NCBI GenBank assembly: GCA_963843375.1
Contig: CAWJKT010000001.1
Coordinates: 1 to 64,000 of the forward strand
Direction: 5' to 3'
Source: an uncultured Pseudomonadota bacterium
Lineage (GTDB): Bacteria; Oederibacteriota; Muellerivitia; Muellerivitales; Muellerivitaceae
DNA length: 64,000 bases
The number at the start of each line of letters is the position of its first letter. Position 1 is the first letter of the stretch. Positions 12,001-18,000 of this stretch are shown one piece after another. Position numbers: made by a program.

Positions 12001-15000
12001 TCAGAGCGCCCACCTAGGGGATTCCCTCCAAGGTATTCAAGAACCCTTTTTTTTCAGCCGGGAAAATTTTAATTACACCTTTTCATTCCGGCCGGGAGAG
12101 GCCTATGGCCTTTACGCCGGACTGGGGGCCTGGGAAAACATGTATCCGAGGGGAGCGGCCTTGTTCGCTTCATTAGGATTGGAAATTTATTCGCCCGCCG
12201 CCAATGTAGGCGGGACCTACTTACGCGGATATTCCACGGGTGACCTGAAGTGGCTGCAGGAGACGGAGGTTGCCGATCAAGAATACCAACTGGGCATCCA
12301 ATGGAAATTTAAGAAGGAAGAAAGCCGGGACGTCCGGCTGACTCTTCTTTATTACAACGGCAATTCGGAATTTGGACAATTTTATCAGGACCATGACGAA
12401 CATTGGGGCTTCGGCCTTTATTTTGATCAGTAAATAAATTTTTTACCGCTAAGGCAAAATGTTGAAAAATAGAATCTTGAAATTTATTTTTTCCAGTTGT
12501 GTCTTCGTGCCGCTCGGGTTAATCCCTTTGTTGGCTTTGGCGGAGGGGGACGAACTGCGCTTCCTGCCCCCGGAACCCGTTTTTGACCGGCTGATCGGCG
12601 ATCCCCGGGAACCCCAGAACGCCTTGATCGCCGACCTCACCTATGCCCGTTACGAGGGAGCCATTGGACCTATCCTGGAATTTCTGCAATGGCGCCCGGT
12701 GGACGGAAGCCGATGGGGTTGGGGAATCCAGGGGGCCAGTTTCATCGAGTTGGACTCGCTGGGCGACTTTGTTTATCCCGAGCGCGTGAGCGACTGGTAT
12801 CTAGGGATGTATTTCAGCGAGGCTTCCGGCGATTATTCCCACCGCTTTGAATATACTCACATCAGTTCCCACCTGGGTGACGAGCTTTTTGACGAGATCC
12901 CCCGAATCATTTATTCCCGCGAATTCTTCCGTTGGACGACTTCACTCCAACCTTCGGAATCCTTCCGGCTTTATGCCGGATTGGGTTGTTACAGCCACAT
13001 GGCCCCTGCTGGCAAACCCTTTTTCCTGCAGGCCGGAACTGAACTTTTCACCCGTTATTTCGAGTTCATCGCCGGAACGGTGGGAAGGGGTTATATGACC
13101 TATGACATAAAAGCCGAACAGGATGCGGGAGGAGTTGTGAACCAGAATTTCCAGTGGGGAATTCAGTGGAAATGGAAAAAAGAAACGTCCCAGGCTCTTC
13201 GAATAGCGATTTCTTACTATAACGGTAACAGTGAGTATGGCCAGTTTTACCAAACCAACGACAATCATTGGGGCCTCGGAATTTATTTTGATCCTTAACA
13301 GGAGGGTGAAAAAGTCTTCGGAACAGACTTTCTCAACATTTCGAGGAAACCAAGTTCAAAGAAACCATTTTTAACGGCTTGGTTCATTCCGCGGCTATTC
13401 GAAGGTTTTTTAAAAATATTTTTTTGAAACCGGTGAAAGTTTTAGTTCGTAAAATTCCAAAATAATCTTTTAATTTCTTGAACTTCCATCCTACTGGTTG
13501 TATAGTCCGTTGAAGTAGACCCCAAGCACTTTCCAATCCCCTATAAACCGTCGATGGAGGCAGGATGACCCCCGTAGAAAGCCCGGCTCACGCCGATACG
13601 GATCAAACTTCCTCTCCTTTTTACCAGCTATTACAACAAATCCCATTGCAGTGTTTTGAACAGGAAAGATTCCTCCAATCCGAGCTTTTAGGGGTCCAGG
13701 TCTATCCTGAAAGGGGTGTTTTGGTCCTTGGCATTCGGATGGCTGGCGCTATTTCTCCCGAGACCTATGCCAATGTCTCCCGCTACTTGAAAGAAAGCCT
13801 TCCTAATGTGAACCGGGTGGTTTTGGACGTCCACTATTCTCCCGCAACCATCAGCCTTTCCGATTACATTGCCGCTCATGAAAAAGACCTTCTTTTTTGT
13901 GTAACGGAGGAAGCCGATATCGCCGAGGGATGGTTTTCCCATTATCAAATTCAGATAAAGGATAACAACCTCATCTTCCAGGTTCCCCATGAGCTGGCCC
14001 GCCAGCAGTTGGACCGCAAGCTTTTTCCAAAAAACATGCAGGATATTATTAACAGCCGTTGTGGCCTGAATGCCAAGGTTGAATTGGCTATCAACCCGGC
14101 CATTCTTCCGGAATTACCGTCGATGACCGAAGAAAAACCGGATGAACTTTCAATTCCCAAGGCTCCCCAACCCGTTATTCTTCTTGGCCGTAAGATCGCG
14201 GAAGAACCTCAATCCATGGACGTGAAAGAAGAAGCGAACGGGTTCGTGGCCCAGGGTGAAATTATCATTTACGAGCAGATCCAGACCCGCAGCGGCCGCT
14301 TCCTGGTCAAGATGACCATTACGGATTACAACAATTCCCTGGATGTGCGTTTTTTCCATGAGAACGACGGCAAGTTCAAGGGGGGGGTGAGGGAAAGGGA
14401 TTGGGTGAGGGTTCGAGGCGACTTGCGGCCCGACAAGTATTCCCATGACGAACTGACTTTGGCTGCCAAAGACATCATGAAAATGCCCCCGCCGGAAAGC
14501 CGCCAGGACAACGCCGTGGAAAAGCGCGTGGAACTACATTGTCATACCCAAATGAGCCGCATGGATGGCCTTTCTAAGATCGACCGGCTTATCGAAAAAG
14601 CCGCCAAGTGGGGCCATTCGGCCATTGCCATCACGGACCACGGAGTTGTGCAGGCCTATCCGGAGGCTCGAGCCGCCGCCAAAAAGCACGGAATCAAGCT
14701 GATTCTTGGCATGGAAGGCTATCTCGTGGACGAGTTCAAACGAGAAAAGGGCATGAGCATCTACCATATTATTCTTCTGGTGAAAAATAAGAAGGGCTTG
14801 AAAAATCTTTATAAGATGGTTTCCGAGAGCCACATGAAATACTTTTACAAGCGGCCGCTGATTCCTAAGGCCCTTTTACAGGAATTTCGTGAAGGAATCA
14901 TCGTTGGCTCGGCATGCGAGCAGGGGGAAGTGTGGCAGCATCTTCTGCATAAGGGACGGCCATTGGAGGAAGTGGCTTCTTTTTACGATTACATCGAAAT

Positions 15001-18000
15001 TCAACCTTGCGCGAACAACGAATTCATGATCGGTGACGGCATCGTCAAGGACATGGAAGAACTCCAAAATCTTACCCGGCTCATTTACGATACGGGTAAA
15101 AAACTGGGCAAGCCCGTGGTGGCCACAGGGGATTCCCACTTTATCGATCCCCAGGATGAGGTTTATCGGCGGATCCTGCACGCCGGCATGGGTTATGGGG
15201 TGGAAAGACAGGCCCCCCTTTATTTCAAGACTACCGACGAGTTAAAGAGCGACTTCGCCTATTTCGGGGACGAAGTCGCCCATGAACTAGTCGTGAAGGG
15301 TCCGCGGCAAGTTGCGGAAATGGTGGAGGATGTCGAGCCACTTCCCACTCAAACCCTCTCTCCCATGTGGGAAGGCGCGGACCAGGAACTTCGGGATACA
15401 GCCACTCAAAGAGCCCTGGAACTTTACGGCTCCCCTTTGCCGGACTTCATCGAAAAGCGACTAAAAAAAGAGCTGAATGCCATCATCGGTAATAAATTCG
15501 CGACCTTATATGTGATCGCCATGAAGCTAGTCAAAAAATCCCTTTCCGATGGTTATATCGTGGGAAGCCGGGGAAGCGTGGGGAGTTCCTTCGTAGCTTT
15601 CCTATGCGGCATTACCGAAGTCAATCCCCTGATGCCCCATTGGCGTTGCAAGGAAGCCCATTGGTTTGAATTTCCGCCCAATCCCTCCTCCATGGCAGGG
15701 GTAGACCTGCCGGAAAAGAATTGTCCCAAGTGTGGTAAGGAGGCGGTGCGGGATGGCTTTTCCATCGCTTTCGAGGTCTTTATGGGTTTCAAAGGCGACA
15801 AGATGCCGGACATCGACCTTAATTTCTCCGGAGAATACCAGCATGTGGCCCATAAATATGTCGAAGAACTTTTTGGTAAGGACCATTGTTTCCGCGCTGG
15901 AACCATTTCGGCCGTCCAGGATCGTATCGCTTTCGGGTTCGTGAAAAAATTCGTGGAGGAAGCGGGTCGCACAGCTCGAAACGCGGAACTCAATCGCCTA
16001 GTCAAAGGCTGTTCGGGCGTTTCCAAGACTACCGGCCAGCATCCCGGCGGTATCGTTATTCTCCCCAAGGAAATGGAAATCACCGATGTCTGTCCTGTCC
16101 AATATCCCGCTGACAACAAAGATGGCGATGTCATCACCACCCACTTCGATTACAACAGCATGCACGATTGCCTAGTGAAGTTGGATATCCTTGGCCATGA
16201 CAATCCCACCAGTTTAAAAAGATTGGAGGGAATGACCGGTGTTTCGGCCGTGGGTATCCCTCTGAATGATCCTGAAACGATGAGTTTGTTCTCTTCGACC
16301 AAGGCGCTTAACCTAAAAGAAAAAACCGACAAGGACCTGGGAACCCTGGGAGTTCCCGAGTTTGGCACCAACTTCGCTATGGACATGTTGCGGGATACCA
16401 AGCCAACTAAGTTCGAGCATCTGGGAAGGCTGTCAGGGTTGGCCCACGGCACGGATGTTTGGCTTGGAAACGCGCAGGATTTGATTAAAAAGGGAACAGC
16501 CAATCTTTCGACGGTCATCTCTACTCGTGACGACATGTTGAACGACTTGCTGGCAAGGGGAATGGACGAGGCCCTGGCTTTCAAGATCATGGAGGATGTG
16601 CGAAAGGGAAAGGGATTGAAGCCGGAATATGAACAGGCGATGGTGGCGGCCAAGACACCCAATTGGTACATCGACAGTTGCAAGAAGATAAAATACATTT
16701 TCCCCAAGGCCCATGCGGTGGCCTATTGCATCATGAGTTTCCGCATCGCTTACTTCAAAGTGCACCATCCCCTGGCTTTTTACGCGGATTATTTCACCAA
16801 TAAGGCTTACGGTTTCGACGCCACGGTGGCCTGTGGCGGATTGGGCCGGGTGAAGGATCGTATCAAGCTGATCCGGTCCCTGGAAAAACCAACGAATAAG
16901 GAATTAGATGAGGCTTCGGTCTTGGACGTGGTGGAGGAAGTTTACGCCCGAGGGTTCAATTTCCTGCCGGTGGACCTCTATAAATCAGACAATCGGCAAT
17001 TCCTCATCCAGGAACAAGATAAGTGAGAAGAAATTACTCCCGCCCCTCATCAGTTTGGCAGGCTTGGGTGAAACGGCGGCTGATCTTATTCGGGCAGAGC
17101 GGGTAAAAGGCCTATTCGTCACGGTCGAGGACCTAGTGGACCGTTGCGGCGTAAACAAGAACGTCATTGAGATCTTGAAAGAACACGGCTGCCTCAAGGC
17201 TGTCCCTGATTCCAATCAAGCCACCTTGTTCTAAAATAAGGTTGATCAAGCCGAAACTTTAGTGGCGACTGGTTCAACTCGGGGAATTCGAACGAAACCC
17301 TTTATTTATGCCTTTTTAACTGGTTGCCCTTGCCAAACTTTGGTCTTTTTGATACAACAATCCAGCAATTTAAGGTTGTCCCGAAAGTGGGCCCTTTCCG
17401 GCCTGCTTTTTTTTTCTTATTTTTTGGCTATGGGTTAGGGCAAGGATTGTTAGATTTCAGACGGCCGAAAGGCCGTTTGTCGTTTGTGCCCTATTTTTTG
17501 GGGATGCCCAAACCGGGGTAGGAAAGAATGGGACTTCCAGAGGAACCGAGGAATGTCCAACTTCGGGATTTGGCCGAGGCCGTGGTCAAAGACAACTTTT
17601 TGGAGCTTTTTGACCTGCGGTCCAGGCCTCAAGGTAAAAAGCTGATTTTGACGGTGGTCTTGGACAAGAAAAGCGGTCCTGTGACTTTGGAGGATTGCGC
17701 GGTGGTGAGCCGGGAACTGGAAAAACGGCTTGATGAATTGGACTTAATTGAGACTGCTTATGTTTTGGAGGTGTCTTCCCCGGGTTTGGACCGGCCCTTA
17801 AGGCACCTGGAGGATTGTCGGAGATTCAAAGGCCGGTTAGCCCAGTTTATATTGAGGGAGCCCTTGGAAGGGCAGGTGAGTTTTGAGGGACGATTGGGCG
17901 AGACGGATGATAAAAGAGTGGAAGTAAAGGTTGGAAAAGAAAGAACCCTGTGGGTTCCTTTTCCGACGTGAAAAGCGCCAAGCTGGTTGTGGAAATATAA

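Follow-up and report, generated by a model that had tools for sequence, protein, structure and literature searches.

An exonuclease-less PolC-type replicase paired with a PHP-degenerate DnaE1 in the candidate phylum Oederibacteriota

PolC-type replicases that lack the DnaQ-like exonuclease (Exo) insert and are paired with a DnaE1 have been on record for Clostridia and Negativicutes since 2013/14 (Timinskas et al., NAR 2014, PMC3919608)—a precedent that the initial annotation of the present locus had rightly raised as a caveat. According to the discussion of that paper, the exo-less PolCs known at the time all came from Clostridia, and its Table 2 lists PolC+DnaE1 systems, apart from those of Fusobacteria, with a conserved PHP site in DnaE1. 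The legend of its Figure 1 presents structure 3f2b as devoid of the NTD and Exo domain. A nine-residue motif, HHDHEH[C/H]DH, is taken to mark an active PHP exonuclease in the relevant part of PMC12926913, and the C-terminal clamp motif of Bacillus subtilis PolC is described as essential in PMC12309361. The phyletic range of PolC, where it is printed in PMC3919608, PMC11040001, and PMC4070872, comprises four phyla: the Firmicutes, the Fusobacteria, the Tenericutes, and the Thermotogae. The PolC described herein lies outside this printed range, as had been proposed. It is encoded in a window of 64,000 nucleotides from contig CAWJKT010000001.1 (assembly GCA_963843375.1) of an uncultured soil bacterium with lipopolysaccharide and outer-membrane genes, whose nearest relatives are labelled candidate division FCPU426.

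Architecture and integrity of the polC locus

The gene g00023 encodes a genuine PolC-type replicase that naturally lacks the DnaQ-like exonuclease insert. Its features and those of its surroundings are as follows.

9708..10280 (+): 3' fragment of proS, model positions 385–559 only; cut by the join to a block of 70% G+C
10411..13298 (+): upstream neighbors of polC, namely one GT4 glycosyltransferase gene and two genes of DUF1207
13565..17234 (+): polC, whole gene, ~1222 codons; split in the assembly by one extra base near 17023
13565..17026 (+): polC as first called, 1153 aa; stops before the (HhH)2 region and clamp-binding motif
14282..14479 (+): OB domain, PF01336 (E = 6e-6; 26.5 bits, slightly below the 27-bit cut-off)
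14531..15178 (+): PHP domain, uninterrupted, aa 323–538
H325, H327, D334, H359, E384, H401, C451, D523, H525: PHP metal site of PolC, HHDHEHCDH
14729..14755 (+): insertion site of the ~200-residue DnaQ-like Exo domain of other PolCs, aa 389–397
15383..16624 (+): polymerase core; palm/NTPase aa 607–795, fingers aa 892–1020
PDIDLNF (aa 748–754) and KLDILGHD (aa 872–879): polymerase-core stretches compared with 3f2b
17013..17234 (+): last 69 codons of polC, read in the +1 frame; QATLF (QxxLF clamp-binding motif), then stop
17019..17026 (+): site of the one-base insertion, which makes a false TGA stop at 17024–17026; compared with the same-genus relative L039
17528..24979 (+): rimP, nusA, infB, rbfA, nrnA-like, truB, and ribF, directly 3' of polC
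19741..20832 and 20640..21665 (+): infB in two frames, split in the assembly

The frame at 13565..17026 scores 1301.5 bits against NF001688 (cut-off 873) and 1180.2 bits against TIGR01405 (cut-off 1043). Pfam assigns an OB domain (aa 240–305), a contiguous PHP domain (aa 323–473), DNA_pol3_alpha (aa 607–795), and a finger domain (aa 892–1020) but finds no RNase_T domain in this protein. In the genome search, NF001688 matches with its positions 6–407 and then 610–1377, leaving only ~4 residues between both matches; hence, the Exo insert of ~200 positions is cleanly absent. The alignment shows seven residues at the insertion site, as opposed to ~200 in exo-bearing PolCs. Model scores, contiguous PHP domain, missing RNase_T, and model gap thus all agree with the initial annotation of an exo-less PolC. 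Residues 220–1149 align in a single stretch to residues 13–961 of PDB chain 3f2b (1008 bits). PDIDLNF and KLDILGHD, which we take to be the stretches carrying the catalytic aspartates, match identical or near-identical stretches of 3f2b. The PHP active-site residues, left unchecked until now, read as an intact HHDHEHCDH in g00023. The same nine residues are present in 41/41 PolCs of the phylum, 67/68 other exo-less PolCs, and 112/152 exo-bearing ones. Judged from these conserved residues, the PHP domain of PolC is predicted to be a 3'–5' exonuclease.

At the 3' end, NF001688 positions 1372–1444 are found in the +1 frame at 17013..17231. One letter at 17023 is left out in the contigs of all four public runs compared, which come from two studies, one of them possibly the source sample. 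The relative P0003 (1222 aa, 95% identical) shares the N terminus of g00023 and reads through without a break. Hence, the start is correct, and what had seemed to be missing is a C-terminal stretch of ~70 residues that an assembly indel put out of frame; the worry that the start had been miscalled was misplaced. The gene therefore runs to 17234 and ends in QxxLF, as do 36 of 40 PolCs of the phylum.

Two other explanations concern the locus itself. Were the frameshift real, as the assembled frame ending at 17026 would have it, polC of this strain would be a pseudogene or would yield a shortened protein that does not bind the clamp. This is very improbable: the extra base is absent from the contigs of all four runs, relatives read through the site, and there is just this single break across 1153 codons, while infB and bamA are likewise broken in this assembly, pointing to systematic indel errors. 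The other explanation, that polC is a mis-joined or mis-binned piece of a Firmicute, draws on an assembly that is error-prone and chimeric (80% complete, estimated contamination 4%). Bases 1 to ~9700 of the contig have 70% G+C compared with 50% for the remainder, the join cuts proS, and high-G+C blocks occur on other contigs too. However, polC sits 3.8 kb into the 50% G+C part and shares its G+C content with the genome elsewhere. The same flanking genes recur across numerous independent assemblies, among them contigs of 0.7 to 2 Mb: the order GT4–DUF1207–polC in nine relatives' loci, proS–GT4 in locus L044, and polC–rimP–nusA in 24/26 loci of families f1 and f2 and their nearest relatives. Together with the presence of PolC throughout much of the phylum and the covariation of its divergence with that of DnaE1 (both below), this makes a foreign origin of the piece scarcely credible.

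The DnaE1 partner and the distribution of PolC

The DnaE partner is encoded at C6:139164-142589 (-) and comprises the full domain set, with 1385.4 bits on NF004226. The pair proposed for this genome is supported by the matches to NF001688 and NF004226. The partner is not "standard," as had been assumed, because its PHP site is decayed even though all domains are present. Checked per residue against Thermus DnaE (2hpi), the site reads HHEKEPGDH, and four of the nine ligands are lost in family f1, to which the genome belongs. The site is degenerate in 8/8 DnaE1s of f1, 1/1 of f2, and 2/2 of f9. It is canonical in none of 42 close metagenomic relatives versus 71/74 distant DnaE1s. Among the PolC-less genomes of the phylum, it is canonical in all 13 that are fully readable; in another, G030, the first two positions are missing and the other seven are canonical. 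The site is also still canonical in seven PolC-bearing families, where DnaE1 could serve as the principal replicase and do its own proofreading.

A stand-alone DnaQ had been reported missing, and this stands for the present genome (80% complete) as well as for G021 of the same genus (99% complete). In both, the oligoribonuclease Orn is the only RNase_T match; in the present genome it is, as annotated before, a protein of 181 aa (NF003765, 264 bits), and two of the phylum's DnaQ-like proteins, used as tblastn queries, match nothing there. A single RNase_T match is found in 11/15 f1 genomes, of Orn-like size and, where compared, near dnaE as here; a second, DnaQ-like gene occurs in 3/15. With no DnaQ found and the DnaE1 PHP site degenerate, the PHP domain of PolC is the only predicted replicative proofreader.

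The NF001688 cut-off is exceeded in 43/61 sampled genomes of the phylum, all with exo-less PolCs, including 11/11 of family f1, in line with its earlier reported presence throughout the family. PolC is not found in the other 18 of the 61, which belong to six families and include a closed 2.9-Mb genome; PolC is thus dispensable in the genetic background of the phylum. The proposal that PolC+DnaE1 is the normal state of the phylum therefore stands as to the pair itself but not for these six families. PolC is a core, vertically inherited gene kept by most but not all families. It is more conserved than DnaE1 in 17/17 genome pairs, and both divergences track each other. In other families of the phylum, the neighbors of polC differ (murB, a PMT-type glycosyltransferase, or tilS).

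Strand bias was reproduced with a crude ORF caller: at least 77% of ORFs lie on one strand in 19/32 contigs, as had been described for most contigs (77–91%), and majority-strand ORFs sum to 71% over all contigs. The gene-strand bias of PolC-less relatives is equal to or stronger than that of PolC carriers. Hence, the suggested test of a link between PolC and gene co-orientation turns out negative here.

Probable division of labor and origin

Taken as a whole, we consider it probable that an intact, exo-less PolC, a core gene of the phylum, is the PHP-proofread bulk replicase and DnaE1 its subsidiary. PolC would be placed on the β clamp by its C-terminal QxxLF motif and carry out bulk, high-fidelity synthesis, with errors removed by the metal-dependent 3'–5' exonuclease of its own PHP domain. 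Since its PHP active site is lost in f1 and no DnaQ partner is found, DnaE1 probably has a DnaE3-like subsidiary role, for example, in primer extension, and would depend on PolC for fidelity.

The phylum's PolCs branch deep, outside all named Firmicutes clades and near deep unnamed PolCs, one of which carries the label Hydrogenedentota. The PolC of g00023 is 52–54% identical to exo-less PolCs labelled Moorella, Thermanaeromonas, Thermoclostridium, and Peptococcaceae. In free trees, the PolCs of the phylum form two clades on a weakly supported backbone; constraining its 23 PolC rows to a single clade raises the log-likelihood by 30.4 over that of the quick free tree (p-AU 0.75). The genome encodes BamA and LpxC, both over their cut-offs, and no Spo0A over its cut-off. 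The nearest named outsiders of its DnaE1, by MAG labels rather than by a phylogeny, are Nitrospirae, Omnitrophica, Latescibacteria, Nitrospinota, Zixiibacteriota, and Tectomicrobia; the 120 matches listed include no Clostridia. In the DnaE1 tree, in which the phylum is not monophyletic, three clostridial DnaE1s are placed apart from the phylum's nearest outsiders (99 SH-aLRT). By its DnaE1 relatives and these marker genes, the host is not Firmicutes-like. Most likely, an ancient transfer from a Firmicutes-like donor brought PolC into the phylum's ancestor a single time; the alternative is descent from a deeper shared ancestor. PolC would then have been lost, or never been present, in the six PolC-less families.

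Both role and origin can be read differently. PolC might be accessory or specialized, with DnaE1 replicating both strands: DnaE1 is full length, scores as a DnaE1, and contains an internal QTSLF stretch, PolC is not found in 18 of the 61 genomes, and this option is raised for Clostridia in the discussion of PMC3919608. We regard this as unlikely, given the lost DnaE1 ligands and their further decay in relatives, the higher conservation of PolC, and its retained clamp motif; moreover, as no DnaQ was found, a DnaE1-only replisome would be left without a recognizable proofreader. Somewhat more serious, yet still doubtful, is shared descent of PolC with Firmicutes, in which case the exo-less form could even be primitive. 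The deep position of the phylum's PolCs is in favor of it. In f1 and f2, polC is closely followed by rimP–nusA–infB, and proS stands farther upstream, past three genes. This relative order, proS–polC–rimP–nusA–infB, is presumably that of Bacillus, and the polC–rimP–nusA adjacency occurs in the Clostridia locus L067. However, the differing neighbors in other families and the non-Firmicutes DnaE1 and envelope genes speak against common descent, and the root depends on a very long DnaE outgroup branch (1.2–2.2 changes per site). Furthermore, exo-less and exo-bearing PolCs are interleaved, with at least 15 changes forced by starred branches of the 90-row tree, some between close sisters; hence, repeated Exo loss is the simpler reading.

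Comparison with described replicases

The enzyme type is already known, but here the proofreading site of the partner DnaE1 is lost as well. With the system of Clostridia and Negativicutes, the present PolC shares the order NTD–OB–PHP–Pol3–(HhH)2 without Exo insert, the contiguous PHP domain with its canonical metal site, and a DnaE1-type partner. The clostridial system differs in its host, as the present one belongs to a candidate phylum and has the BamA, LpxC, and Spo0A profile given above, and in the DnaE1 PHP site, which is canonical in the one exo-less-PolC-bearing Clostridiales genome checked. The continuous alignment partner 3f2b, PolC of Geobacillus kaustophilus, reportedly had its NTD and Exo domain taken out by design; the present form is natural, and its connection at the insertion site is even shorter.

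In Bacilli, the PolC+DnaE3 system of B. subtilis likewise combines a partner with a disrupted PHP site and PolC-dependent proofreading, as described in PMC12926913, and its PolC shares the C-terminal QxxLF clamp motif. Proofreading there is by the DnaQ-like Exo of PolC, whereas the present PolC has only the PHP site, and the present partner still scores as a DnaE1 (1385 bits), with OB and C-terminal regions. The DnaE1s of Mycobacterium and Thermus have the same PHP motif, HHDHEH[C/H]DH, according to PMC12926913. In those systems, DnaE1 is the sole replicase and carries the site itself; here, PolC carries it, and the DnaE1 site is decayed.

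Architecture and gene end of the window PolC

The polC open reading frame of the window (13565..17026, forward strand) translates into 1153 residues and scores 1301.5 bits on the NCBIfam model NF001688 (PolC-type, cut-off 873) and 1180.2 bits on TIGR01405 (cut-off 1043.45). Both PolC equivalog cut-offs are passed even without the last 69 residues of the gene, and the DnaE models score far under their own cut-offs. The Pfam domains are arranged as follows.

Pfam domains of the window PolC (residues of the assembled reading frame)
aa 120-174, +, PolC N-terminal subdomain (NII); weak, E = 1e-4, under cut-off
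aa 240-305, +, OB fold
aa 323-473, +, PHP domain, uninterrupted
aa 607-795, +, polymerase core (Pol3)
aa 892-1020, +, fingers

The N-terminal domain and the OB fold both precede the PHP domain, which is the PolC-type order: as described in PMC3919608, the OB fold and a PolC-specific N-terminal domain lie before the PHP domain in PolC, whereas the OB fold of DnaE comes after the polymerase core. Pfam finds no RNase_T (PF00929) match in the protein. In the whole-genome profile search, NF001688 is matched at positions 6-407 and then at 610-1377 with about 4 residues between, leaving 408-609 unmatched. The site at which usual PolCs carry the DnaQ-like Exo domain inserted in the PHP domain comprises 7 residues, against approximately 200 in exo-bearing PolCs (269-row alignment; PolC alignments used only sequences of at least 1100 aa, of which 266 were collected, 261 of them distinct). 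The PDB chain 3f2b, a PolC structure without NTD and Exo domain according to a figure legend in PMC3919608, aligns in a single stretch with 1008 bits, and this match to a solved PolC structure is unambiguous. From the model scores, the Pfam domains with their contiguous PHP, the split match, the alignment gap and the 3f2b match, it follows that the initial annotation was correct in describing an exo-less PolC-type replicase. A DnaE-type companion polymerase is present in the same genome (G000, 80% complete; C6:139164-142589); PMC3919608 states that PolC is always accompanied by one.

The gene does not end where the assembly ends it. The final 73 positions of NF001688 (1372-1444) lie in the +1 frame at 17013..17231. 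A metagenomic relative of 1222 aa (P0003, 95% identical) has the same N-terminal residues as the window frame and continues uninterrupted across the junction, where a same-genus relative has three bases versus four in the window. One letter at 17023 is missing from the Logan contigs of all four public runs (two studies; one may be the source sample). Thus, the stop at 17024-17026 is an assembly indel, and the corrected polC spans 13565..17234 (+), about 1222 codons. The earlier suspicion of a miscalled start is wrong, as the N terminus of P0003 is the same and the shortfall stems from the 3' indel. The (HhH)2 region and QxxLF are seen only past the indel, and the recovered C-terminal tail is important because it ends in QATLF. 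The QxxLF motif forms the C-terminal end in 36 of 40 other PolCs of the phylum, and PF14579 is found in relatives of the window PolC. For B. subtilis PolC, PMC12309361 places the clamp-binding motif (QLSLF, consensus QxxLF) at the extreme C terminus and describes the PolC-clamp contact as essential.

Other genes are affected as well: infB falls into two frames that overlap (19741..20832 and 20640..21665), bamA is likewise split into two (G000 C3:86069-88223), and the nusA frame (18170..19153) covers only model positions 57-340. These three genes suggest systematic indel errors in the G000 assembly. In addition, the first ~9.7 kb of the window form a block of ~70% G+C that is joined within proS to the 50% G+C genome, the proS remnant beside the join covering only model positions 385-559; the junction resembles a chimera with DNA of another organism. 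The block holds a fragmented ABC permease, a piece of a molybdopterin-binding dehydrogenase and a pyruvate-kinase piece. Similar high-G+C blocks occur, mostly at ends, in G000 contigs C3, C4, C7, C9, C10, C18, C24 and C27.

The polC gene itself sits in the 50% G+C part of the contig and is native to the genome, the order GT4, two DUF1207 genes, polC, rimP, nusA recurring in many independent assemblies. The DUF1207 genes, a tandem pair of 288 and 279 aa (window 11567-13298), lie directly upstream of polC, a position conserved across the family. In the window's family and in family f2, polC is found just upstream of rimP-nusA-infB, with proS upstream past three intervening genes; in Bacillus the relative order, proS ... 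polC ... rimP-nusA-infB, is the same. One Clostridia locus also shows polC-rimP-nusA, and in other families of the phylum the neighbors of polC are murB, a PMT-type glycosyltransferase or tilS. The closest polC loci (76-94% identity) are mostly labeled candidate division FCPU426. The NCBI taxonomy contains the name Oederibacteriota, but a literature search found it in no paper, and no tie between that name and these genomes was found.

Proofreading sites of PolC and DnaE1

A 2026 survey of bacterial polymerases (PMC12926913) counts a PHP domain as active if it carries the motif HHDHEH[C/H]DH. The window PolC has the canonical HHDHEHCDH at residues 325, 327, 334, 359, 384, 401, 451, 523 and 525, and this nine-residue signature predicts a 3'-5' proofreading exonuclease in its PHP domain. 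The motif is canonical in 41 of 41 PolCs of the phylum, in 67 of 68 exo-less PolCs outside that set (a part of them probably also from the phylum) and in 112 of 152 exo-bearing ones.

The companion polymerase scores 1385 bits on NF004226, over the cut-off; yet it is not the standard DnaE1 of the initial annotation. Its PHP site reads HHEKEPGDH, a reading verified at each residue by comparison with Thermus DnaE. Degenerate sites occur in 8/8 DnaE1s of the window's family, 1/1 of f2 and 2/2 of f9; all 13 fully readable PolC-less genomes and the seven remaining PolC-bearing families of the sample have a canonical site. None of 42 metagenomic DnaE1s at least 59% identical to that of the window has a canonical motif, and the motif differs from protein to protein, as would be expected of a site without constraint. 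Of 74 DnaE1s at 45-48% identity, 71 have the canonical motif. In the one Clostridiales genome with an exo-less PolC that was checked, the DnaE1 PHP site is canonical; in one Bacilli DnaE3 it is fully degenerate.

A stand-alone DnaQ was reported missing from the genome, and this stands: the sole RNase_T-family gene of G000 is an oligoribonuclease, and tblastn with two DnaQ-like proteins of the phylum gave no match. Across the family, 15 genomes were compared: RNase_T is matched once in 11 (including a 99%-complete genome of the same genus), three carry a second, DnaQ-like match and one has none. The PHP domain of PolC is therefore the only recognizable replicative proofreader in the window's family, given a degenerate DnaE1 PHP and no DnaQ; as the sole predicted proofreader, it is well supported by sequence. 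By match coordinates, the oligoribonuclease gene (G000 C6:131986-132474) lies 7-17 kb from dnaE, as also in at least seven relatives of the family, which may reflect conserved linkage or chance.

Distribution, descent and strand bias within the phylum

PolC is found over the cut-off in 43 of 61 genomes sampled evenly from the phylum, including 11/11 of the window's family. All 43 show the split model match, with open frames of about 1200-1360 aa except where a contig end cuts them, so all are exo-less. The other 18 genomes (f4, f5, f6, f12, f14 and f16), one of them a single-contig genome of 2.9 Mb, have DnaE only. A DnaQ-family protein (TIGR00573) exceeds its cut-off in nine of the 61, all belonging to the PolC-less families f4 (5/6) and f12 (4/4). 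Hence, the phylum holds three states, namely exo-less PolC with DnaE1, DnaE1 with DnaQ, and DnaE1 alone, and the earlier proposal of the first as normal for the whole phylum fails in six families. Among NCBIfam models, the stand-alone DnaQ-like protein of f4 and f12 best matches the PolC model in its Exo segment (positions 415-615, up to 197 bits), examples being the loci L074 (G056:C100:460-1275) and L073 (G015:C1); the window's own family has a weaker version of 205 aa in three of its 15 genomes compared.

All 17 genome pairs compared show stronger conservation of PolC than of DnaE1, and both identities drop together from 93% to about 40%, which fits vertical descent of PolC under a constraint at least equal to that on DnaE1. 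A tree in which the 23 PolC rows of the phylum are held as one clade has a log-likelihood 30.4 above that of the quick free tree (p-AU 0.75); the data thus allow a single origin of PolC in the phylum. Free PolC trees, whose backbones have weak support, place these proteins in two clades. The PolC-less families group together in the DnaE1 tree, where two changes are needed. DnaE1 was rejected as a root for the phylum, whose DnaE1s do not form one clade when named outsiders are added. Antisense-frame picks from high-G+C genomes were removed, namely the G018 DnaE, which stood as a branch of length 7.75 in the DnaE1 tree with two changes and was taken out afterward, and the PolCs of G034 and G022, excluded ahead of the 90-row PolC tree; the trees also omit the G010 DnaE, which a contig end truncates to 739 aa.

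As to origin, the nearest named relatives of the window PolC are Clostridia, exo-less and exo-bearing, at 49-58% identity. For DnaE1, the nearest named outsiders are labeled Nitrospirae, Omnitrophica, Latescibacteria, Nitrospinota, Zixiibacteriota and Tectomicrobia; no Clostridia are among the 120 matches listed, and three Clostridia DnaE1s stand apart in the tree. BamA and LpxC exceed their cut-offs in G000, and no Spo0A does. This discordance of PolC with DnaE1 and the envelope genes favors the view that a non-Firmicutes lineage received PolC by an old transfer, with the labels of MAG records being no phylogeny. This view is tempered by the deep branching of the phylum's PolCs, beside other deep PolCs of which one is labeled Hydrogenedentota, by the very long DnaE outgroup branch of the PolC tree, and by the Bacillus-like gene order around polC in the window's family and f2. 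Exo-less and exo-bearing PolCs are interleaved among Firmicutes-type PolCs, and well-supported branches force at least 15 changes on the 90 rows; the Exo insert therefore appears to have been lost repeatedly, and its absence in the phylum is more likely derived than primitive. Some exo-less and exo-bearing proteins are close sisters, such as P0062 and P0100. Deep-branching PolCs of both kinds also come from metagenomic contigs (P0249, P0190, P0174 and P0150). Of eight deep-branching PolCs queried, only two carry a label, one Hydrogenedentota and one plain "bacterium". The range of PolC among uncultured lineages seems wider than the four phyla in print.

Strand bias was measured with a crude ORF caller (longest non-overlapping ORFs of at least 90 aa). 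The initial annotation placed 77-91% of genes on one strand for most contigs. This agrees with 19 of 32 G000 contigs at 77% or more; summed over contigs, the majority strand holds 71%, and 23 blocks of 100 kb have a median of 0.71. In sign, the bias follows the GC skew. Compared with G000 were blocks of 20-100 kb, 11 from seven PolC-less and 13 from seven PolC-bearing relatives.

Majority-strand fractions of blocks (the high-G+C genomes, 59-67% G+C, were given zero weight since the ORF caller is unreliable there)
G004, PolC-less: 0.84, 0.78, 0.76, 0.63
G002, PolC-less: 0.94, 0.87
G023, PolC-less: 0.96
G052, PolC-less: 0.88
G029, PolC-less: 0.98
G040, PolC-less: 0.55
G035, PolC-less (20 kb): 0.58
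G021, PolC-bearing, same genus as G000: 0.73, 0.63, 0.61, 0.52
G027, PolC-bearing: 0.92
G050, PolC-bearing: 0.88, 0.90
G006, PolC-bearing: 0.92
G012, PolC-bearing, high G+C: 0.61, 0.62
G005, PolC-bearing, high G+C: 0.67
G009, PolC-bearing, high G+C: 0.51

Thus, in these small and related samples with unmapped replichores, strong co-orientation is at least as common without PolC. The phylum had been put forward as an independent test of the link between PolC and co-orientation; the link finds no support in it, PolC-less relatives being equally or more biased.

Joint reading and comparison with known systems

Taken together, the comparisons allow a reading that we put forward tentatively, as possible rather than probable. 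A non-Firmicutes phylum with LPS and outer-membrane genes would have acquired a clostridial-type PolC once and retained it through the radiation of most of its families, after which the resident DnaE1 would have lost its PHP proofreading site in the window's family, f2 and f9. A Bacillus-like division of labor would herein have evolved independently of Bacilli, but with the PHP domain of an exo-less PolC as the only replicative proofreader. Given the strong bias in PolC-less sister families, strand bias in this phylum would be independent of PolC and may predate it.

Whether the strong leading-strand gene bias of Firmicutes is due to PolC is under debate in papers up to 2024: PMC11040001 reports co-evolution of PolC and strand bias, and PMC11237797 speaks of a dependency proposed and rejected and calls PolC "not sufficient". 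With families that have PolC next to families that lack it, the phylum is a natural experiment, and in the sampled blocks strand bias does not correspond to the presence of PolC. A replisome with the PolC PHP as its only recognizable proofreader would also be a clean system for PHP proofreading in PolC, and its DnaE1 an essential replicase subunit in decay after the arrival of a second polymerase.

In print, PolC is limited to Firmicutes, Fusobacteria, Tenericutes and Thermotogae (PMC3919608, PMC11040001). The window's phylum is none of these four, as the initial annotation had seen; the window polC is real and intact, its enzyme type is known, and its host phylum lies beyond the published range. 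Polymerase-survey supplements aside, no on-topic literature was found that joins PolC with FCPU426, or PolC with candidate phyla and DnaE1; in public annotation, these proteins already appear as PolC-type or "Gram-positive type".

The closest known system is the exo-less PolC with DnaE1 of Clostridia and Negativicutes. In the account of PMC3919608, exo-less PolCs make up 6% of PolCs, occur only in these two groups plus one extra copy in Thermotogae, and are always accompanied by DnaE1. The window PolC shares the canonical PHP site of this system (HHDHEHCDH). However, the DnaE1 of Clostridia and Negativicutes has a conserved PHP site, whereas the window's partner scores as DnaE1 but reads HHEKEPGDH, and the host there is a Firmicute, in contrast to relatives labeled candidate division FCPU426 and a genome with BamA and LpxC and without Spo0A. 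Compared with PolC and DnaE3 of Bacilli, the partner is best matched by the DnaE1 model NF004226 and clusters with DnaE1s, away from the single Bacilli DnaE3; it resembles DnaE3 only in its decayed PHP site. The enzyme architecture itself is already known. Four points are new: a DnaE1 whose PHP site has decayed, three replisome states side by side in a single phylum, a strand-bias comparison with a negative outcome, and the correction of the gene end.
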